Below, piece by piece: positions 4,406-28,036 of a stretch of DNA of 64,000 nucleotides. The stretch comes from Escherichia phage vB_EcoM-S1P5QW. Under the pieces are notes generated by a model. That model searched no databases. It was given only the letters and a program-made list of their open reading frames with translations, and had not been told where the DNA came from. How positions within the stretch are numbered: position 1 is the first letter of the stretch; each line of letters begins with the position of its first letter. Made by a program: the position numbers and the translations under genes. The stretch lies in sequence record OL956808.1. One strand, 5' to 3'.

Positions 4406-5608
4406 ATGAAAGTATGTATTTTTATGGCTCGAGGTCTTGAAGGTTGTGGTGTAACAAAATTCTCACTCGAGCAACGTGATTGGTTTATTAAAAATAGTCA
4501 TGAAGTGACTTTGGTTTATGCTAAAGATAAATCATTTACTCGTAATTGCGCGCATGATTATAAATCATTTTCAATTCCGGTTTTATTGGCAAAAGAATAT
4601 GATAAAACACTTAAGCTGGTAAATGATTGTGATATTCTAATTATCAATTCAGTTCCTGCTACTTCGGTTGAAGAAGACACGATTAATAACTATAAAAAAA
4701 TTATTGATAACATTAAACCTTCTGTTCGTGTTGTAGTTTATCAACATGACCATTCTTCTCTTTCTTTGCGTCGAAATTTGGGATTAGAAGAAACTGTTCG
4801 TCGAGCTGATGTTATTTTTAGCCATTCTGATAATGGTGATTTTAATAAAGTTCTGATGAAAGAGTGGTATCCAGAAACTGTTTCTCTGTTTGATGATATT
4901 GAAGAAGCACCGACCGTATATAACTTTCAGCCTCCTATGGATATTGCGAAGGTTCGATCAACCTACTGGAAAGATGTTTCTGAAATTAACATGAATATCA
5001 ACCGTTGGATTGGTCGTACGACTACATGGAAAGGTTTTTATCAGATGTTTGATTTTCACGAAAAACATCTTAAACCTGCAGGACTAAGTACTATTATGGA
5101 AGGTCTGGAACGTTCTCCAGCGTTCATTCCTATTAAAGAAAAAGGAATTCCATACGAGTATTATCGTCTTCATCAAGTAGACCAAATTAAAATTGCTCCT
5201 AATTTGCCAACGCAAATTCTTGACCGTTATGTAAATAGCGAAATGCTTGAACGTATGAGTAAATCCGGATTTGGTTATCAGTTGAGTAAGTTGGATAAAA
5301 AATATCTACAGCGCTCTTTAGAATATACTCATCTCGAGCTTGGTGCATGTGGAACAATTCCGGTATTTTGGAAATCTACTGGCGAAAATTTAAAATTCCG
5401 TGTTGATAATACTCCTTTGACCTCGCATGATAGCGGTATCATTTGGTTTGATGAAAATGATATGGAATCAACATTTGAACGTATTAAAGAACTGTCATCT
5501 GACCGAGCTCTTTATGACCGTGAGCGAGAAAAAGCATATGAATTTTTGTATCAGCATCAAGATTCAAGCTTCTGCTTTAAAGAACAGTTTGACATTATTA
5601 CAAAATAA
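4406..5608 (+). CDS. agt: DNA alpha-glucosyltransferase
   Basis: 400 aa; MKVCIFMARGLEGCGVTKFSLEQRDWFIKN... matches recalled T4 alpha-gt nearly throughout. Confidence 0.95.
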   Translation: MKVCIFMARGLEGCGVTKFSLEQRDWFIKNSHEVTLVYAKDKSFTRNCAHDYKSFSIPVLLAKEYDKTLKLVNDCDILIINSVPATSVEEDTINNYKKIIDNIKPSVRVVVYQHDHSSLSLRRNLGLEETVRRADVIFSHSDNGDFNKVLMKEWYPETVSLFDDIEEAPTVYNFQPPMDIAKVRSTYWKDVSEINMNINRWIGRTTTWKGFYQMFDFHEKHLKPAGLSTIMEGLERSPAFIPIKEKGIPYEYYRLHQVDQIKIAPNLPTQILDRYVNSEMLERMSKSGFGYQLSKLDKKYLQRSLEYTHLELGACGTIPVFWKSTGENLKFRVDNTPLTSHDSGIIWFDENDMESTFERIKELSSDRALYDREREKAYEFLYQHQDSSFCFKEQFDIITK

Positions 5609-13413: not shown

Positions 13414-16110
13414 ATGAAAGAATTTTATATCTCTATCGAAACAGTCGGAAATAATATTGTTGAACGTTATATTGATGAAAACGGAAAGGAACGTACTCGT
13501 GAAGTAGAATATCTTCCGACTATGTTTAGGCATTGTAAGGAAGAGTCAAAATACAAAGACATCTATGGTAAAAACTGCGCTCCTCAAAAATTTCCATCAA
13601 TGAAAGATGCTCGAGATTGGATGAAGCGAATGGAAGACATCGGTCTCGAAGCTCTCGGTATGAACGATTTTAAACTCGCTTATATCAGTGATACGTATGG
13701 TTCAGAAATTGTTTATGACCGAAAATTTGTTCGTGTAGCTAACTGTGACATTGAGGTTACTGGTGATAAATTTCCTGACCCAATGAAAGCTGAATATGAA
13801 ATTGATGCTATCACTCATTACGATTCAATTGATGATCGTTTTTATGTTTTCGACCTTTTGAATTCAATGTACGGTTCAGTATCAAAATGGGATGCAAAGT
13901 TAGCTGCTAAGCTTGACTGTGAAGGTGGTGATGAAGTTCCTCAAGAAATTCTTGACCGAGTAATTTATATGCCATTCGATAATGAGCGTGATATGCTCAT
14001 GGAATATATCAATCTCTGGGAACAGAAACGACCTGCTATTTTTACTGGTTGGAATATTGAGGGATTTGACGTTCCGTATATCATGAATCGCGTTAAAATG
14101 GTTCTCGGTGAACGTAGTATGAAACGCTTCTCTCCAATCGGTCGAGTAAAATCTAAACTAATTCAAAATATGTACGGCAGCAAAGAAATTTATTCTATTG
14201 ATGGCGTATCTATTCTTGATTATTTAGATTTGTATAAGAAATTCGCATTTACTAATTTGCCGTCATTCTCTTTGGAATCAGTTGCTCAGCATGAAACCAA
14301 AAAGGGTAAATTACCATACGACGGTCCTATTAATAAACTTCGTGAGACTAATCATCAACGATACATTAGTTATAACATCATTGACGTAGAATCAGTTCAA
14401 GCAATTGATAAAATTCGCGGGTTTATCGATCTAGTTTTAAGTATGTCTTATTACGCTAAAATGCCTTTTTCCGGTGTAATGAGTCCTATTAAAACTTGGG
14501 ATGCTATTATTTTTAACTCATTGAAAAGTGAACATAAGGTTATTCCTCAACAAGGTTCGCACGTTAAACAAAGTTTTCCGGGTGCATTTGTATTTGAACC
14601 TAAACCGATTGCTCGTCGATACATTATGAGTTTTGACTTGACGTCTCTGTATCCTAGCATTATTCGTCAGGTTAACATTAGTCCTGAGACTATTCGTGGG
14701 CAGTTTAAAGTTCATCCAATTCATGAATATATCGCAGGAACAGCTCCTAAACCGAGTGATGAATATTCTTGTTCTCCGAATGGATGGATGTACGATAAGC
14801 ATCAAGAAGGTATCATTCCAAAGGAAATCGCTAAAGTATTTTTCCAGCGTAAAGATTGGAAAAAGAAAATGTTCGCTGAAGAAATGAATGCCGAAGCTAT
14901 TAAAAAGATTATTATGAAAGGCGCAGGGTCTTGTTCAACTAAACCTGAAGTTGAACGATATGTTAAGTTCAGTGATGATTTCTTAAATGAACTATCGAAT
15001 TATACTGAATCTGTTCTCAATAGTTTGATTGAAGAATGTGAAAAAGCAGCTACACTTGCTAATACAAATCAGCTGAACCGTAAAATTCTTATTAACAGCC
15101 TTTACGGTGCTCTTGGTAATATTCATTTCCGTTACTATGATTTGCGAAATGCTACTGCTATCACAATTTTTGGTCAAGTTGGTATTCAGTGGATTGCTCG
15201 TAAAATTAATGAGTATCTGAATAAAGTATGTGGAACTAATGGCGAAGATTTCATCGCAGCAGGTGATACTGATTCGGTATATGTTTGTGTAGATAAAGTT
15301 ATTGAAAAAGTAGGTCTTGACCGATTCAAAGAGCAGAACGATTTGGTTGAATTTATGAATCAGTTCGGTAAGAAAAAGATGGAACCTATGATTGATGTTG
15401 CATATCGTGAGTTATGTGATTATATGAATAACCGCGAGCATCTGATGCATATGGACCGTGAAGCTATTTCTTGCCCTCCGCTTGGTTCAAAGGGTGTTGG
15501 TGGATTTTGGAAAGCGAAAAAGCGTTATGCTCTGAACGTTTATGATATGGAAGATAAGCGTTTTGCTGAACCACATCTAAAAATCATGGGTATGGAAACT
15601 CAGCAGAGTTCAACGCCTAAAGCGGTCCAAGAAGCTCTCGAAGAAAGTATTCGTCGTATTCTTCAGGAAGGTGAAGAGTCTGTCCAAGAATATTACAAGA
15701 ACTTCGAGAAAGAATATCGTCAACTTGACTATAAAGTTATTGCTGAAGTAAAAACTGCGAACGATATAGCGAAATATGATGATAAAGGTTGGCCAGGATT
15801 TAAATGCCCGTTCCATATTCGTGGGGTGCTAACTTATCGTCGAGCTGTTAATGGTCTGGGTGTAGCTCCAATTTTGGATGGAAATAAAGTAATGGTTCTT
15901 CCATTACGTGAAGGAAATCCATTTGGTGACAAGTGTATTGCTTGGCCGTCGGGCACAGAACTTCCAAAAGAAATTCGTTCTGACGTACTGTCTTGGATTG
16001 ACTACTCAACTTTGTTCCAAAAATCGTTTGTTAAACCGCTTGCAGGCATGTGTGAATCGGCTGGTATGGACTATGAAGAAAAAGCTTCGTTAGACTTCCT
16101 GTTTGGCTGA
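13414..16110 (+). CDS. 43: DNA polymerase gp43 (family B)
   Basis: 898 aa; exo motifs and polymerase motifs (DTDS, YGDTDS-like); matches recalled T4 gp43. Confidence 0.97.
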   Translation: MKEFYISIETVGNNIVERYIDENGKERTREVEYLPTMFRHCKEESKYKDIYGKNCAPQKFPSMKDARDWMKRMEDIGLEALGMNDFKLAYISDTYGSEIVYDRKFVRVANCDIEVTGDKFPDPMKAEYEIDAITHYDSIDDRFYVFDLLNSMYGSVSKWDAKLAAKLDCEGGDEVPQEILDRVIYMPFDNERDMLMEYINLWEQKRPAIFTGWNIEGFDVPYIMNRVKMVLGERSMKRFSPIGRVKSKLIQNMYGSKEIYSIDGVSILDYLDLYKKFAFTNLPSFSLESVAQHETKKGKLPYDGPINKLRETNHQRYISYNIIDVESVQAIDKIRGFIDLVLSMSYYAKMPFSGVMSPIKTWDAIIFNSLKSEHKVIPQQGSHVKQSFPGAFVFEPKPIARRYIMSFDLTSLYPSIIRQVNISPETIRGQFKVHPIHEYIAGTAPKPSDEYSCSPNGWMYDKHQEGIIPKEIAKVFFQRKDWKKKMFAEEMNAEAIKKIIMKGAGSCSTKPEVERYVKFSDDFLNELSNYTESVLNSLIEECEKAATLANTNQLNRKILINSLYGALGNIHFRYYDLRNATAITIFGQVGIQWIARKINEYLNKVCGTNGEDFIAAGDTDSVYVCVDKVIEKVGLDRFKEQNDLVEFMNQFGKKKMEPMIDVAYRELCDYMNNREHLMHMDREAISCPPLGSKGVGGFWKAKKRYALNVYDMEDKRFAEPHLKIMGMETQQSSTPKAVQEALEESIRRILQEGEESVQEYYKNFEKEYRQLDYKVIAEVKTANDIAKYDDKGWPGFKCPFHIRGVLTYRRAVNGLGVAPILDGNKVMVLPLREGNPFGDKCIAWPSGTELPKEIRSDVLSWIDYSTLFQKSFVKPLAGMCESAGMDYEEKASLDFLFG

Positions 16111-16123
16111 TAGAATAAATCTA

Positions 16124-16145
16124 GGGACCTCCGGGTCCCTTTTTC
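16124..16145 (+). terminator. GGGACC-UCCG-GGUCCC hairpin plus T5
   Basis: Strong hairpin 14 nt after gene 43 stop. Confidence 0.6.
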
Positions 16146-16209
16146 ATACAAGTAATATAAATCTATACTTATGAAAAACAGATGATTCTGGACCTTTAGA
16201 ATTCCCTAA

Positions 16210-16262
16210 AAAAATTTCACAAAACTGTTTACAAGACTGTTCTTCCATGGTACTATACAACT
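16210..16262 (+). promoter_or_regulatory. T4-type early promoter (-35 GTTTACA, -10 TACTAT)
   Basis: TTTCACAAAACTGTTTACAAGACTGTTCTTCCATGGTACTATACAA; near-identical module recurs at 43940..44002. Confidence 0.55.
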
Positions 16263-16284
16263 ATCAACTACGGAGGAACACAAA

Positions 16285-16536
16285 ATGAAAAATATTCAAA
16301 CTAATTTTATTCAAAATTTAAAAGTTGTTAACGCAGAAAAAGCTAATAAACTCTTTAAAGTTAAAGAATTTGAAAATGAAGGTAACACTTACGGTATTAT
16401 AGAACAAAATGGAATGGTTACTGGATTAGAAATTTATAATGGTAAAGGAAAATTTCAGTCACAGCCAATTTCTGTTATGGGTGTAAGAAAAGGAATTAAA
16501 ACTGAAGATGCTTTAAAGTTATTTGTTAAGTTTTAA
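16285..16536 (+). CDS. Hypothetical protein (83 aa)
   Basis: ORF with RBS GGAGGAAC downstream of early promoter. Confidence 0.6.
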   Translation: MKNIQTNFIQNLKVVNAEKANKLFKVKEFENEGNTYGIIEQNGMVTGLEIYNGKGKFQSQPISVMGVRKGIKTEDALKLFVKF

Positions 16537-16548
16537 GAGGAAATTATT

Positions 16549-16929
16549 ATGAAAATCGCTATTTTGGTTATTGCATTAGGTCTTACTGGTTGTGTGGCTC
16601 AAGGACCGGTAGTAAATCAGTCTGATGTAGGAAAAATTGTAAACTGTTCAAGCAAGTTTTATAATCCTAATGTCAAGTGTTATAAAGAAGCTCCAAAGCA
16701 AACAGTAGAACAAATGCAGGCGAATTTTGACGAAGCTATTCGTCCAGATGAATCTGCTCAAGCATATCGTAATTCGGATGTAATTACACGCGAAGAAAAA
16801 ATTGAAAACTACTGCGCCGAGCTTTGGGCTAATTGGGCTAATAATTACCAATGGCGTACCGGTAAAAATGCTCCGATGGAGTATGTAGTGAATTCTTATA
16901 ATTCATGCGTAAAAAATTTGACTAAGTGA
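16549..16929 (+). CDS. Predicted lipoprotein (126 aa)
   Basis: Signal peptide MKIAILVIALGLTGC with lipobox LTG-C; four further Cys; adjacent to imm. Confidence 0.6.
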   Translation: MKIAILVIALGLTGCVAQGPVVNQSDVGKIVNCSSKFYNPNVKCYKEAPKQTVEQMQANFDEAIRPDESAQAYRNSDVITREEKIENYCAELWANWANNYQWRTGKNAPMEYVVNSYNSCVKNLTK

Positions 16930-16936
16930 GGAAAAC

Positions 16937-17188
16937 ATGGAAACTTTAGTAGCAGGTTCAATTTTTATGGTTTTAGTTTCAGGCGTGTTGGCTATTATTA
17001 TATACATGCTTCCATGGTTTATCGCCTTGATGCGTGGGTCAAAATCGACAGTAGGAATCTTTTTCACGTCTTTACTGTTTAACTGGTCAATTATTGGTTG
17101 GTTTATTACATTTATTTGGTCAATTGCGGGTGAAACTAAAAAGTCTGCACAGCCAAATCAGGTAATTATCATCAGAGAGAAGGAATGA
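16937..17188 (+). CDS. imm: Superinfection immunity membrane protein Imm (probable)
   Basis: 83 aa, two TM segments, position between 43 and 42 as in T4. Confidence 0.65.
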   Translation: METLVAGSIFMVLVSGVLAIIIYMLPWFIALMRGSKSTVGIFFTSLLFNWSIIGWFITFIWSIAGETKKSAQPNQVIIIREKE

Positions 17189-17334
17189 AAAGCAAAATTA
17201 TAGCAGTGTTGCTTTTAATCTTGATGATTATAATAAGTATATACTATAGTGTAACGGTTCCTCTTATGATTCCAACTATTATTTTAGGTTGGAGCTTATT
17301 ACTGTTACAAGTTAAATATGAATGTATCAATTGA
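17185..17334 (+). CDS. Small membrane protein (49 aa), not in ORF track
   Basis: ATGA overlap with imm; hydrophobic sequence MKSKIIAVLLLILMIIISIYY... Confidence 0.45.
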   Translation: MKSKIIAVLLLILMIIISIYYSVTVPLMIPTIILGWSLLLLQVKYECIN

Positions 17335-17341
17335 GGTTTAA

Positions 17342-18082
17342 ATGATTAGTGACTCTATGACAGTTGAAGAAATCCGTCTTCATTTGGGGCTTGCATTAAA
17401 GGAAAAAGATTTCGTAGTTGATAAAACTGGTGTTAAAACTGTTGAAATTATTGGCGCATCATTTGTAGCAGATGAACCCTTTATTTTTGGCGCTCTTAAT
17501 GATGAATACATTCAGCGTGAACTTGAATGGTACAAGTCTCAAAGTCTGTTTGTTAAAGATATTCCAGGTGAAACACCAAAGATTTGGCAGCAGGTAGCAT
17601 CTTCTAAAGGCGAAATTAACTCGAATTATGGTTGGGCTATTTGGTCAGAAGATAACTATGCCCAGTATGATATGTGTTTAGCTGAACTTGGTCAAAATCC
17701 TGATTCTCGACGTGGTATCATGATTTATACTCGTCCATCTATGCAGTTTGACTATAATAAAGATGGTATGTCAGATTTCATGTGCACGAATACAGTACAG
17801 TACCTGATTCGTGACAAGAAAGTCAATGCAGTAGTAAGCATGCGCTCAAATGACGTGGTCTTCGGATTCCGTAATGATTATGCATGGCAAAAATACGTAT
17901 TAGATAAATTAGTATCTGATTTGAATGCAGGCGATTCAACTCGTCAGTATAAAGCAGGTTCTATTATATGGAATGTTGGAAGTCTTCATGTATATTCTCG
18001 TCATTTTTACTTGGTTGATCATTGGTGGAATACTGGCGAAACTCATATTGTGAAAAAAGACTATAAAGGTGAGTGGAAATGA
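17342..18082 (+). CDS. 42: dCMP hydroxymethylase gp42
   Basis: 246 aa; matches recalled T4 gp42 throughout. Confidence 0.95.
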   Translation: MISDSMTVEEIRLHLGLALKEKDFVVDKTGVKTVEIIGASFVADEPFIFGALNDEYIQRELEWYKSQSLFVKDIPGETPKIWQQVASSKGEINSNYGWAIWSEDNYAQYDMCLAELGQNPDSRRGIMIYTRPSMQFDYNKDGMSDFMCTNTVQYLIRDKKVNAVVSMRSNDVVFGFRNDYAWQKYVLDKLVSDLNAGDSTRQYKAGSIIWNVGSLHVYSRHFYLVDHWWNTGETHIVKKDYKGEWK

Positions 18083-18921
18083 TTCAATTCGTAATTCCAA
18101 GTTATCAACGTGTCGGGGCAGTTTCTGCCCTTGATATGTTTCCGACTGATTATGAACCGCATATTGTAGTGCGTGAACACGAAGAAAAAGCTTATTATGA
18201 TGCTTATGGGTCTAGAGCTAAAATTATAACTATTCCTGATGATGTAAACGGAATTGCCGGTACTCGTAAAGCAATTACTGATATGTATGCAGGTCAACGA
18301 ATTTGGATGATTGACGATGATACTACTATTCGTATGAGTTCAATGCGAAAAAGAGATGACCGTCGTTGTGTGGATAAAGTCAATCAATTGACTCATGAAC
18401 AGTTCTATGAATTGATTCAATATGTTGAGGATGCCATGGATTGTGGGTATTATCATGGCCATGCTCGTCTACCTATTTTTAAAATTACTTCATCTTGGGG
18501 CAATTATCGTGAAAATTCATATGGATTCACGAATACATGGTATGACCTCGGAAAACTTACTACAGAACAAATTGGGTATGGAAAAATTGATTTATGCGAA
18601 GATATGTATGCATTTCTCAATTTAATTAGTCAAGGTTATCCGCATTTGGCCTTGTTCAAATATCTGGTTGTATCTGGAAAAGCACAAGCTCCTGGCGGGT
18701 GTAGTTCAATTCGTAGTAATTCTAAACATAATAGAGCGCTTGAGCAAATCAATAGAGAGTTTCCAGAGCAAGCTCGTTGGAAAACTTCTAATATTGAAAA
18801 ACGAAAATCGTTGGGTGAAGAAGACGAGCCATTAAAGGTTCTTCGCATGTGTGTTTCACGTAAAGAAAAATCAGAAGCATTTCATAAGTTTAATGCTATT
18901 CATCCAATAGCAGTTGATTAA
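18073..18921 (+). CDS. Glycosyltransferase with DxD motif occupying the T4 beta-gt locus; candidate beta-1,6-glucosyl-alpha-glucose transferase (T2/T6 type)
   Basis: 282 aa, WMIDDDTT DxD motif; lies between 42 and uvsX where T4 carries the unrelated 351-aa beta-gt. Confidence 0.55.
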   Translation: MEMIQFVIPSYQRVGAVSALDMFPTDYEPHIVVREHEEKAYYDAYGSRAKIITIPDDVNGIAGTRKAITDMYAGQRIWMIDDDTTIRMSSMRKRDDRRCVDKVNQLTHEQFYELIQYVEDAMDCGYYHGHARLPIFKITSSWGNYRENSYGFTNTWYDLGKLTTEQIGYGKIDLCEDMYAFLNLISQGYPHLALFKYLVVSGKAQAPGGCSSIRSNSKHNRALEQINREFPEQARWKTSNIEKRKSLGEEDEPLKVLRMCVSRKEKSEAFHKFNAIHPIAVD

Positions 18922-18945
18922 TGCCTAAATTTATTGTGTTATAAT
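18922..18945 (+). promoter_or_regulatory. Possible MotA-dependent middle promoter upstream of uvsX (MotA-like box TGCCTAA, -10 TATAAT)
   Basis: TGCNT-type box about 11 bp upstream of TATAAT. Confidence 0.35.
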
Positions 18946-18998
18946 TACTCTATCTTTAACCAGTGAGGAAAATATAATGATGCCTATGGAAAAAATGA

Positions 18999-20180
18999 AT
19001 GTCTATTGCAGATTTAAAATCCCGTTTGATTAAAGCTTCCACTTCTAAAATGACTGCTGAACTGACTACATCTAAATTCTTTAATGAAAAGGATGTAATC
19101 CGTACAAAAATCCCAATGCTTAATATTGCTATTTCTGGTGCGATTGATGGCGGCATGCAGTCTGGTTTAACTATTTTCGCAGGGCCTTCTAAACACTTTA
19201 AATCAAATATGTCTTTGACTATGGTTGCGGCATATTTGAACAAATATCCTGACGCGGTTTGTCTATTCTATGATAGCGAATTTGGTATTACTCCAGCTTA
19301 TTTACGATCCATGGGAGTTGACCCGGAACGAGTAATTCATACGCCAATTCAGTCAGTTGAACAGCTGAAAATTGATATGGTGAACCAGCTTGAAGCTATT
19401 GAGCGTGGTGAAAAGGTTATTGTATTCATCGACTCAATCGGTAATATGGCTTCTAAGAAAGAAACGGAAGATGCCTTGAATGAAAAATCTGTGGCAGATA
19501 TGACTCGTGCTAAATCACTGAAGTCATTATTCCGTATTGTTACTCCTTATTTTAGCATTAAAAATATTCCATGTGTTGCGGTTAACCATACAATTGAAAC
19601 AATTGAAATGTTTAGTAAAACCGTGATGACAGGTGGTACAGGCGTAATGTATTCGGCTGATACTGTATTCATTATCGGTAAACGCCAGATTAAAGATGGT
19701 TCTGATCTTCAGGGGTATCAATTTGTTCTAAATGTAGAAAAATCTCGTACCGTTAAAGAAAAAAGTAAATTCTTTATTGATGTTAAATTTGACGGTGGTA
19801 TCGATCCTTATTCTGGATTGTTAGATATGGCTCTAGAATTAGGATTTGTTGTAAAACCTAAGAATGGTTGGTATGCTCGTGAATTTCTTGACGAAGAAAC
19901 TGGCGAGATGATTCGCGAAGAAAAATCTTGGCGTGCAAAAGATACCAACTGCACTACATTCTGGGGTCCTTTATTTAAGCATCAACCATTCCGAGATGCT
20001 ATTAAACGTGCTTATCAGTTAGGTGCTATTGATAGTAATGAAATTGTTGAAGCTGAAGTTGATGAATTGATTAACTCAAAGGTTGAAAAATTTAAATCTC
20101 CAGAAAGTAAAAGTAAATCAGCAGCTGATTTAGAAACTGACCTCGAGCAGTTAAGTGATATGGAAGAATTTAATGAATAA
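18999..20180 (+). CDS. uvsX: RecA-like recombinase UvsX
   Basis: 393 aa; MSIADLKSRLIKAS...; Walker A GPSKHFKS; matches recalled T4 UvsX. Confidence 0.95.
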   Translation: MSIADLKSRLIKASTSKMTAELTTSKFFNEKDVIRTKIPMLNIAISGAIDGGMQSGLTIFAGPSKHFKSNMSLTMVAAYLNKYPDAVCLFYDSEFGITPAYLRSMGVDPERVIHTPIQSVEQLKIDMVNQLEAIERGEKVIVFIDSIGNMASKKETEDALNEKSVADMTRAKSLKSLFRIVTPYFSIKNIPCVAVNHTIETIEMFSKTVMTGGTGVMYSADTVFIIGKRQIKDGSDLQGYQFVLNVEKSRTVKEKSKFFIDVKFDGGIDPYSGLLDMALELGFVVKPKNGWYAREFLDEETGEMIREEKSWRAKDTNCTTFWGPLFKHQPFRDAIKRAYQLGAIDSNEIVEAEVDELINSKVEKFKSPESKSKSAADLETDLEQLSDMEEFNE

Positions 20181-23599: not shown

Positions 23600-24628
23600 A
23601 TGTCATCAATACCTTGGATTGATAATGAGTTTGCATACCGTGCATTAGCTCATTTACCTAAATTCACACAAGTAAATAATAGTTCAACTTTTAAATTACG
23701 GTTTAGATGTCCTGTTTGTGGAGATTCAAAAACCGACCAGAATAAAGCTCGTGGATGGTATTATGGTGATAATAATGAAGGAAATATTCATTGTTATAAC
23801 TGTAATTATCATGCACCAATCGGAATATATTTAAAGGAGTTTGAACCTGATTTATATCGTGAGTATATCTTTGAAATAAGAAAAGAAAAAGGTAAAAGTC
23901 GTCCAATAGAAAAACCTAAAGAACTTCCTAAGCAACCTGAGAAGAAAATAATTAAATCTCTTCCGTCATGTGTTAGATTAGATAAACTGGCGGAAGACCA
24001 TCCAATTATAAAATATGTAAAAGCTCGTTGTATTCCAAAGGATAAATGGAAATATCTTTGGTTTACAACCGAATGGCCTAAATTAGTTAATAGCATAGCA
24101 CCGGGAACATACAAAAAGGAAATTTCTGAGCCTCGTCTTGTTATTCCAATTTATAATGCTAATGGAAAAGCTGAGTCTTTTCAAGGACGTGCATTAAAGA
24201 AAGATGCTCCTCAAAAATATATCACCATTAAAGCTTATCCTGAGGCAACAAAAATTTACGGTGTTGAACGAGTTAAAGATGGTGATGTATATGTTCTAGA
24301 AGGACCTATAGATTCACTTTTTATTGAAAATGGTATAGCTATTACGGGTGGTCAATTAGACCTAGAAGTTGTTCCATTTAAAGATAGACGAGTGTGGGTT
24401 TTAGATAATGAACCTCGTCACCCTGACACTATCAAACGAATGACTAAATTAGTTGATGCAGGAGAAAGGGTTATGTTTTGGGATAAATCTCCCTGGAAAT
24501 CAAAAGATGTCAATGATATGATTAGAAAGGAAGGTGCAACCCCTGAACAAATTATGGAATATATGAAAAATAATATTGCCCAGGGGTTGATGGCTAAAAT
24601 GCGGCTATCTAAATATGCTAAGATTTAA
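23600..24628 (+). CDS. 61: DNA primase gp61
   Basis: 342 aa; zinc ribbon CPVCGDS...CYNCNYH; Toprim region; matches recalled T4 gp61. Confidence 0.95.
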   Translation: MSSIPWIDNEFAYRALAHLPKFTQVNNSSTFKLRFRCPVCGDSKTDQNKARGWYYGDNNEGNIHCYNCNYHAPIGIYLKEFEPDLYREYIFEIRKEKGKSRPIEKPKELPKQPEKKIIKSLPSCVRLDKLAEDHPIIKYVKARCIPKDKWKYLWFTTEWPKLVNSIAPGTYKKEISEPRLVIPIYNANGKAESFQGRALKKDAPQKYITIKAYPEATKIYGVERVKDGDVYVLEGPIDSLFIENGIAITGGQLDLEVVPFKDRRVWVLDNEPRHPDTIKRMTKLVDAGERVMFWDKSPWKSKDVNDMIRKEGATPEQIMEYMKNNIAQGLMAKMRLSKYAKI

Positions 24629-24825
24629 ATCAACCCAACTAAAGCAAATGCTAAATCTACAAATGTATCAAGAGTAACTACTGGAATATTAATACCATGT
24701 GCAATTGCAATTGGTGATAAAATAAAGTTCCAGAGTAAAATTCCTACCATAGCAGAAATAGTAAAAGCTATACGTTTTTTATTACCTTTTATGGCATTAA
24801 CAAGTGCCATTAATTTTTGTACCAT
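24625..24825 (-). CDS. Hypothetical small membrane protein (66 aa) antisense to the early unit
   Basis: Two predicted TM segments; strong SD AAGGAGGA 4 nt before ATG; tail-to-tail stop overlap with gene 61. Confidence 0.45.
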   Translation of the reverse strand: MVQKLMALVNAIKGNKKRIAFTISAMVGILLWNFILSPIAIAHGINIPVVTLDTFVDLAFALVGLI

Positions 24826-24837
24826 ATGTCCTCCTTA

Positions 24838-24862
24838 TTGCTTTATATATTTATTGTATAAT
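24838..24862 (+). promoter_or_regulatory. Candidate MotA-dependent middle promoter for gene 56 (MotA box TTGCTTTA, 11-bp spacer, -10 TATAAT)
   Basis: TGCTT box at about -30 relative to TATAAT. Confidence 0.45.
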
Positions 24863-24896
24863 TAATCTACTAACCCATGAATTGAAAGGAAAAATA

Positions 24897-25415
24897 ATGG
24901 CTTACTTTAATGAATGTGCTCATTTGATCGAAGGTGTTGATAAAGCAAATCGTGCATATGCTGAGAATATTATGCACAATATTGACCCACTGCAGGTTAT
25001 GCTTGACATGCAGCGGCATTTACAGATTCGTTTGGCTAATGATAAACCAGAAACAAATCGTCATCCTGATTCACTTGAAACTGCAGGAGAAGTTCTTGCT
25101 TGGTTGCGAAACCAAGACGATTATATCGCAGATGAAACTCGCGAGCTATATACTTCTCTTGGTGGTATGAGTAATGGTGAAAAAGAAGCTTCTGCTGTAT
25201 GGAAACCTTGGAAGAAACGTTATTCTGAAATGCAATCCAAGAAAATTCAAGATTTATCTCCTGAAGATCAGCTTGAAATTAAATTTGAACTGATTGACCA
25301 ATTTCACTTTTTCATGAATAAATTTATTGCTCTTGGAATGTCAGCTGAAGAAATCTTTAAACTTTATTACCTGAAAAATGCTGAAAACTTCGCTCGTCAA
25401 GACCGAGGTTATTAA
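24897..25415 (+). CDS. 56: dCTPase/dUTPase gp56
   Basis: 172 aa from MAYFNECAHLIEGVDKA...; matches recalled T4 gp56. Confidence 0.9.
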   Translation: MAYFNECAHLIEGVDKANRAYAENIMHNIDPLQVMLDMQRHLQIRLANDKPETNRHPDSLETAGEVLAWLRNQDDYIADETRELYTSLGGMSNGEKEASAVWKPWKKRYSEMQSKKIQDLSPEDQLEIKFELIDQFHFFMNKFIALGMSAEEIFKLYYLKNAENFARQDRGY

Positions 25416-26399: not shown

Positions 26400-26740
26400 T
26401 GTTTATCTTTAATTGGTTTAAAAATTTCTTTACAGATTTTTTCTCTACAACTCCGGGAGAAGGTGTAGTTCCTATTTCAAATGACTATCTTCCTTTAACT
26501 GTAGTTGAATATGTTTATATGGGAGATGGAACAGTAGAAGCAGTTACTATGACTTATGAAGAAGCCCAAGAATATTATAAAAATCCTTGGCGCTGGTCAG
26601 TACCTACTACATCATCTAATGCACAGAATACACAGTCTAGTTCTGATTCATATGACACCAATGTTCCTGTTCATGTATGGGCAGGTGATTCATGTGGAAG
26701 TTCTTGTGATTCTAGTTGTTCATCTACATCTTGTGATTGA
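26399..26740 (+). CDS. Hypothetical protein (113 aa) with Ser/Cys-rich C-terminal tail
   Basis: C-terminus [18 protein letters not shown] preceded by Ser/Thr-rich linker. Confidence 0.6.
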
Positions 26741-27234
26741 GGAAAATTATGGAAGCGATTTTGTTTGAAATGTATATTAGCAGTAATAGCATGTCGTTTG
26801 CTAAAGATGTTCCAATTACTGTAGCCGTAGTGATTGATAAGGGTTATTGTAACCCTATGTATCTCGTAGAAAATTTCGTTTCAATGCCAGTTCCAGAAGA
26901 TGTTGAAATAAAACTTAAAAAGATCGGAATTATTGAAACTGTGCCAAATAGTCCGTTTAGAGCAATTGAAGCATTTACTAAATCCGAATACATTAATGTT
27001 AGCGCAGAACAATATAATGGTAATCCTTTATCTTTTTATTCGTACGATTCAGTATATGACTGGAAAATAAATGAAGGAAATAAATTTATAATTGCGAGTG
27101 AAGATGCTTTATCATACTTTATTTATTATGTATGGAATAATTTAAATCCAAAATTGCTAAAAATTCATGAATTTGACGATGCTCCTACTATTGTTTTAGG
27201 TAAAACAAATGAAAGTTCTGAAGAAGATGCTTGA
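26737..27234 (+). CDS. Hypothetical protein (165 aa)
   Basis: ORF in soc-modB interval. Confidence 0.65.
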
Positions 27235-27412: not shown

Positions 27413-27573
27413 ACAAGAACATGACGTTAGAAGAGGCTAAAGCTAAAGCAAATGAAGCCTTAGATTTGCTTCTTAAAATCGGTAGTAAAATGATGGAAGA
27501 AAATGAGAAATACATTCAGGAAAACAAAATTCCTGACGGTCCATTAGTAGGCAAAAGGAAATCACATGATTGA
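27409..27573 (+). CDS. Hypothetical protein (54 aa), not in ORF track
   Basis: ATGA overlaps at both ends. Confidence 0.45.
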
Positions 27574-28036
27574 AGTAGCAAAATTATATTCAATAGAATT
27601 TATGTCTAAAGAAGGTAAATCAGTAAATACACTTGATAAAAAATGCTCGTTAATTATTCCTTTAGCAGAAAATCCGGATATTTTAATTAAAGATATAAAA
27701 GAAAGAAAATATCCAGAAAATGTTATTCTAATTATAAAGCATACTGAAGATATTTTGCAGAATACAGATTCACCATTTTCTTCTTCTGAAGCTTTAACTA
27801 TTAAAGGCTATAAAAGAGCTCATGAATATGGTCTTTTTGACATGTTTGAAGACGATAAAGTTAAATTAGCGAGTCAACCTTCTAAAAGTAAAACATTCAT
27901 TATTGAAGATATTAAAGATATAAACGCATTTGTTAAGATGGTCTGGGCTCATTTTGATGTTGGACTACGCTGGAGAATGTCTGAAGAAGAAAGAAAGATT
28001 GTTGAAGCTAATCGTCACTTTGGTTTTTATCGCTAG
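27566..28036 (+). CDS. Hypothetical protein (156 aa)
   Basis: ORF in soc-modB interval. Confidence 0.65.

Follow-up and report, generated by a model that had tools for sequence, protein, structure and literature searches.

The gene between gene 42 and uvsX in the 64-kb stretch of phage DNA analysed here (the window) is the orthologue of ba-gt (ggt) of phages T2 and T6. We consider it very likely that it encodes a T2/T6-type beta-alpha-glucosyltransferase, and that the phage DNA contains hmC, alpha-glucosyl-hmC and gentiobiosyl-hmC and no beta-glucosyl-hmC. The basis for this is the identity of the gene, the synteny, the fold class, a conserved motif, the presence of alpha-gt and the finding of no beta-gt in the window. 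What reaction takes place, and with what phenotype, is taken from the literature on the T6 orthologue, which is 99% identical. The absence of beta-gt covers the 64-kb window, where the canonical beta-gt locus is occupied by ba-gt.

The first-pass annotation had placed a glycosyltransferase different from that of T4 between gene 42 and uvsX, and had proposed a BLASTP comparison with the beta-alpha-glucosyltransferases of T2 and T6. The protein is identical to that of T6 (NC_054907.1) at 276 of 280 positions and 99% identical to that of T2 (MH751506.1), and it is encoded at the same locus, which identifies it as ba-gt. Entries for the T6 and T2 enzymes include YP_010067197.1 and AYD82639.1. It matches phrog_842 in PHROGs, 'beta-glucosyl-HMC-alpha-glucosyltransferase', with an E-value of 1.3e-88. 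It also matches the Pfam family PF20691, TAGT (TET-associated glycosyltransferase), with 39.4 bits, above the gathering threshold of 27.5, and the match is full-length, residues 3-207 of the protein against 2-205 of the 205 profile positions. Since the score of 39 bits is modest, the T-even enzymes form a divergent branch of TAGT. As in PF20691 and the GT2-like GT-A enzymes, the protein has an N-terminal IPSY, a DDD motif and GT-A topology. The rest of the family, for the most part uncharacterised, has links to TET/JBP-type thymine or cytosine oxygenases or to other sugars (PMC13216743). The gene order imm.1, imm, 42, ba-gt, uvsX, 40, 41 is common to the window, T6 and T2, and so is the partner gene alpha-gt, found on the plus strand at 4406..5608, where it had been placed before, with a full-length match to Pfam PF11440 AGT (E 1.4e-236). 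The ba-gt orthology, the synteny and the presence of alpha-gt argue for the T2/T6-style modification suggested earlier.

The gene is widespread. A tblastn search of 50,697 phage records found homologues in 688, near full length in 684. At least 95% identity was seen in 471 of the 688, chiefly Tequatrovirus phages of Escherichia and Shigella, and about 200 records, from Klebsiella, Enterobacter and Citrobacter phages, have homologues with 60-80% identity. The 5-kb neighbourhood of the gene is 97.4-98.6% identical at the DNA level to many T2/T6-like phages, and the initial 25 kb of the window are alike, so the window is an ordinary segment of a T2/T6-like Tequatrovirus. The gene, its locus, fold and product, its non-relation to T4 beta-gt and its role against host defences are already published. 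As the gene, locus, fold and phenotype have been described and the gene is present in hundreds of sequenced phages, this is not new biology. The original cloning from T2 and T6 is reportedly that of Winkler and Rueger in Nucleic Acids Res, 1993. The naming of ba-gt in GenBank and RefSeq varies, from 'b-gt', 'glucosyl transferase' and 'hypothetical protein' to 'RB32ORF041c' and 'glycosyltransferase like family 2', and RefSeq labels the dCMP hydroxymethylase gp42 'thymidylate synthase'. Such inconsistent names for ba-gt and gp42 could mislead the automated prediction of modification type.

On the plus strand, positions 18073..18921 form one ORF, 282 aa when counted from a GTG codon, with the dCMP hydroxymethylase gene (17342..18082) before it and uvsX (18999..20180) after it. 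The true start is almost certainly the ATG at 18079. A GGTGA sequence, read directly from the plus strand at 18068..18072 and conserved in T2 and T6, is 6 nt upstream of this ATG, and from its complementarity to the 3' end of 16S rRNA it would work as a Shine-Dalgarno sequence. The GTG at 18073 abuts the GGTGA with zero spacer. The ATG also overlaps the stop codon of gene 42 (18080-18082) in an ATGA start/stop arrangement, as it does in T2 and T6, and it is the annotated start in the T2 record and in one of two T6 records. The product is 280 aa in the T2 record and 279 aa in the T6 record with the ATG start, the latter because of a one-codon deletion. The spacing of the ribosome-binding site, the ATGA overlap and the starts annotated in T2 and T6 thus give a gene at 18079..18921, 280 codons plus the stop codon; the GTG start was dropped, the spacing and the homologue annotations being against it. 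The ORF earlier assigned to 18073-18921 therefore stands, and its start, its length of 282 aa and its 10-nt overlap with gene 42 are replaced by ATG 18079, 280 aa and 4 nt. The ATGA overlap points to a probable translational coupling of ba-gt with gene 42.

A scan of 16900-19200 for sigma-70 promoters and terminators found such sites to be no more frequent than in shuffled sequence. The single terminator-like site of the scan, against a chance expectation of 1.1, is a 7-bp G+C-rich hairpin at 18115-18131, GGGGCAGTTTCTGCCCT, followed by a T-rich stretch, 36 nt into the ba-gt ORF. The hairpin is also kept in T2 and T6, and it is probably not meaningful. The minus-strand ORFs that overlap ba-gt are short (78, 70 and 40 aa), and the related records inspected have no minus-strand annotation beneath the match.

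At the same place in T4 the order is 42, b-gt, segA, uvsX. The T4 record has b-gt with 351 aa and then segA, in agreement with the length given in the first-pass annotation. T4 b-gt (NP_049658.1) has the same location downstream of gene 42 as ba-gt in the window, and TAGT has been described as syntenic with the T4 beta-GT position by the authors of PMC13390438. Like ba-gt, the T4 enzyme glucosylates the hmC DNA of the phage, in beta linkage and from UDP-glucose (PMC13216743). The two differ in fold, GT-B (PF09198) for T4 b-gt and GT-A for ba-gt (PMC13216743; predicted for the window protein), and in acceptor, which is hmC itself for T4 b-gt and alpha-glucosyl-hmC for ba-gt. The lack of resemblance between the two proteins, stated earlier, was borne out by the searches. 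T4 b-gt and the window protein have no detectable similarity by BLASTP, the best match having an E-value of 0.28 over 10 residues, and a Pfam search gave no match of the window protein to PF09198, the T4 beta-gt family. The PDB holds structures of T4 beta-gt (PMC13216743), and when all PDB chain sequences were searched with the window protein by phmmer, the hits were chance ones only, with E above 1. Homologues of T4 b-gt and segA were not found by tblastn anywhere in the 64-kb window. Kinship to T4 beta-gt was accordingly rejected, BLASTP, phmmer and tblastn all being without a real match.

T4 and the window cease to be similar in DNA near 18066, about 15 nt short of the stop codon of gene 42, and are similar again from 18999, the start codon of uvsX. 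These break points imply an exchanged cassette that runs from the 3' end of gene 42 up to the start of uvsX. The G+C content of ba-gt is 0.36-0.38 in the composition profile, like that of its neighbours, and as there is no anomaly over the gene there is no compositional sign of a recent foreign origin. Downstream, the replaced cassette ends at the uvsX recombinase gene (18999..20180, plus strand; Pfam T4_UVSX_C and RecA). Its product is 393 aa in the window, compared to 391 aa in T4 (a 1176-bp CDS), and has two added codons (Ile-Ala) after Met-Ser, exactly where the similarity to T4 DNA restarts. The spacer between ba-gt and uvsX (18922-18998) is 77 nt and lacks the homing endonuclease gene segA, which is present there in T4, adjoining b-gt. 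Within the spacer, at 18922-18945, TGCCTAA is followed by 11 nt and TATAAT, a stretch that is identical in T2 and that may be a middle promoter for uvsX, as it resembles the consensus of the MotA-dependent middle promoters of T4.

The predicted structure is a single Rossmann-like alpha/beta/alpha domain that matches GT-A/GT2-like glycosyltransferases. The AlphaFold2 model, made from a shallow alignment, has a mean pLDDT of 70 and a pTM of 0.71, and is consistent with the GT-A fold for which a structural prediction had been proposed as a check. In residues 1-120, blocks of 10 residues average 70-95 in pLDDT, and values below 50 are seen at 126-151, 205-212 and 261-280, the C-terminal half being of low confidence. 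The WMIDDDTT sequence, pointed out earlier as a DxD motif, occupies residues 76-83 in the 280-aa numbering, with the codons of D79-D80-D81 at 18313..18321 on the plus strand. The three aspartates are in the loop directly after a predicted strand (74-77), and the loop after such a strand is the usual position of the DxD in GT-A enzymes. Among 5.8 billion proteins 11 homologues were found, down to 28% identity, and ten sequences were aligned. The DDD does not vary in 10 homologues with identities down to 28-32%, and I6-P7-S8-Y9, R11, G58-I59, T62-R63, D175 and G206-G207 are likewise invariant in the ten-sequence alignment. The N-terminal IPxY resembles the IPxYN signature of GT2 enzymes. By analogy, the DDD would be the site that binds the divalent metal and the diphosphate of UDP-glucose. 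E174-D175 in a CED sequence (codons 18598..18603, plus strand) is a candidate for the catalytic base that an inverting GT-A enzyme would use, on the analogy of GT2 enzymes, where the acidic base comes after the DxD; D175 is invariant and E174 nearly so in the alignment of ten sequences. As the C-terminal half of the model has low confidence, this placement of the base is without structural support. For the TAGT of T6, the GT-A fold and a position as sister to GT2 have already been published (PMC13216743).

The window contains genes for the steps that would precede the action of ba-gt. The dCMP hydroxymethylase gene 42 (17342..18082, plus strand; Pfam Thymidylat_synt, E 1.6e-15, and so annotated in T2 and T6 records) makes hm-dCMP, which then goes into the phage DNA. 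The dCTPase/dUTPase gene 56 (24897..25415, plus strand; 69% identical to T4 gp56 over 172 aa by tblastn, and assigned to phrog_173, nucleoside triphosphate pyrophosphohydrolase) removes dCTP and so keeps unmodified C out of the DNA. The DNA alpha-glucosyltransferase puts an alpha-linked glucose on hmC, forming the acceptor for ba-gt, which in turn would move a second glucose from UDP-glucose to the 6-OH of the first in a beta-1,6 linkage, giving gentiobiosyl-hmC. Going from UDP-alpha-glucose as donor to a beta linkage in the product would invert the anomeric configuration, as expected of a GT2-like GT-A fold. With this mechanism the DDD would bind the metal and the diphosphate of UDP, while the acceptor hydroxyl would be deprotonated by an acidic residue, possibly E174 or D175. 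When ba-gt is deleted in T6, only alpha-glucosyl-hmC remains and the sensitivity to the DNA glycosylase Brig1 increases (PMC11078745), and the DNA of T6 delta-g-gt becomes a substrate of the glucosidase BapA (bioRxiv 10.64898/2026.02.25.707755). In ten Tequatrovirus phages with alpha-GT and TAGT, HPLC/MS detected hmC, alpha-glucosyl-hmC and gentiobiosyl-hmC, and no beta-glucosyl-hmC (PMC13390438).

TAGT is a broad family, with homologues that occur beside a beta-GT or without any other GT (PMC13216743), a co-occurrence that suggests varied specificities, and the homologues in Klebsiella and Enterobacter phages are 64-65% identical to the window protein. The protein could then be a member with another sugar or acceptor, for example free hmC or another nucleotide sugar. 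We find this scarcely credible here, where just 4 differences, all outside the invariant positions, set the protein apart from the T6 enzyme, which has been characterised genetically, and where the alpha-gt context is identical to that of T6.

It is also very improbable that ba-gt in the window is an inactive remnant. Laboratory stocks can acquire damage in the gene, as two public T6 records with lesions in it show. In NC_054907.1 (3001-3840) an in-frame 3-nt deletion has removed one Asp of the DDD, and in MH550421.1 (2138-2980, minus strand) codon 10 has changed from CAG to TAG (amber); because of this nonsense codon, the annotated CDS (786 bp) begins at an ATG further downstream. Both lesions are absent from the window copy, which is full length, retains Q10, DDD79-81 and every residue invariant in the family, and has a good ribosome-binding site. 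A search of IMG/VR found no allele with the one-codon deletion of T6 and the full DDD allele in 4 contigs, so the deletion looks particular to the NC_054907.1 record. Since high gentiobiosylation is known above all from T6 as the reference phage, the two lesions may be mutations of particular stocks or errors of sequencing.

With an active ba-gt as the favoured reading, there is the matter of how much gentiobiosyl-hmC is made. It amounts to about 5% in T2 as compared to about 72% in T6 (PMC13390438), and as the T2 copy is 99% identical, having ba-gt does not settle how much of the modification is made. The same enzyme could thus work at a low, T2-like level in this phage, leaving alpha-glucosyl-hmC and free hmC with a few percent of gentiobiosyl-hmC and a T2-like response to defences. 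We regard this as a serious, if rather unlikely, alternative, for which the example of T2 itself speaks, together with Y40 and D55, shared by the window and T2 where the T6 RefSeq record has N40 and G55. On the other hand, the window has the T6 residues R11, H106 and P251 at three T2-specific positions (H11, R106 and S251 in T2), and all ten Durham Tequatrovirus phages with alpha-GT and TAGT have roughly 40-67% gentiobiosyl-hmC, the values lying at about 40% or about 67% (PMC13390438). There are four substitutions or indels relative to T2 and four relative to T6, the complete DDD being counted among those against the T6 record.

The window is also without dam, like T6 and the Durham group with high gentiobiosylation, although this is a correlation only. 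Neither dam nor segF was found anywhere in the 64-kb window. The region at 24629-24896, between the primase gene 61 (23600..24628) and gene 56, has no dam; T4 has dam there, and segF next to gene 56. The gp61 of the window is 99.7% identical to that of T4, compared to just 69% for gp56. The absence of dam matches the Durham group with about two-thirds gentiobiosyl-hmC (PMC13390438). The T6 residues at the T2-specific positions, and the lack of dam as in T6 and in that group, weakly suggest a high, T6-like gentiobiosyl fraction in this phage; the argument is correlative and drawn from sequence. The substitution N184S occurs in the window alone among the window, T2 and T6, at a variable position. 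It is conceivable, though quite unlikely, that N184S and the T2/T6 mosaic at positions 11, 40, 55, 106 and 251 give an intermediate or unusual gentiobiosylation. If so, a natural variant would help to map the residues or loci (dam, alpha-gt alleles) behind the unexplained difference between T2 and T6.

Apart from the modification genes, two ORFs at 26737..27234 (165 aa) and 27566..28036 (156 aa), about 330 nt apart, both match phrog_1234, the Mrh transcription modulator (E 1e-61 and 5e-53), and may be paralogues. The stretch 14,500-19,000 of the T4 record has one annotated mrh, cut at the edge of the stretch. No tRNA genes were found in the 64-kb window.

The gentiobiosyl-hmC of T6 protects the DNA from the Brig1 glycosylase and the BapA glucosidase (PMC11078745; bioRxiv 10.64898/2026.02.25.707755), and GmrSD-type enzymes still cut gentiobiosyl-hmC DNA (PMC13216743). 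The presence of ba-gt predicts the modification type of this phage, namely hmC, alpha-glucosyl-hmC and gentiobiosyl-hmC without beta-glucosyl-hmC. The modification type in turn sets the response to the defences that act on modified DNA, and the identification of the gene would be of use in annotation and in the prediction of host range and defence sensitivity.
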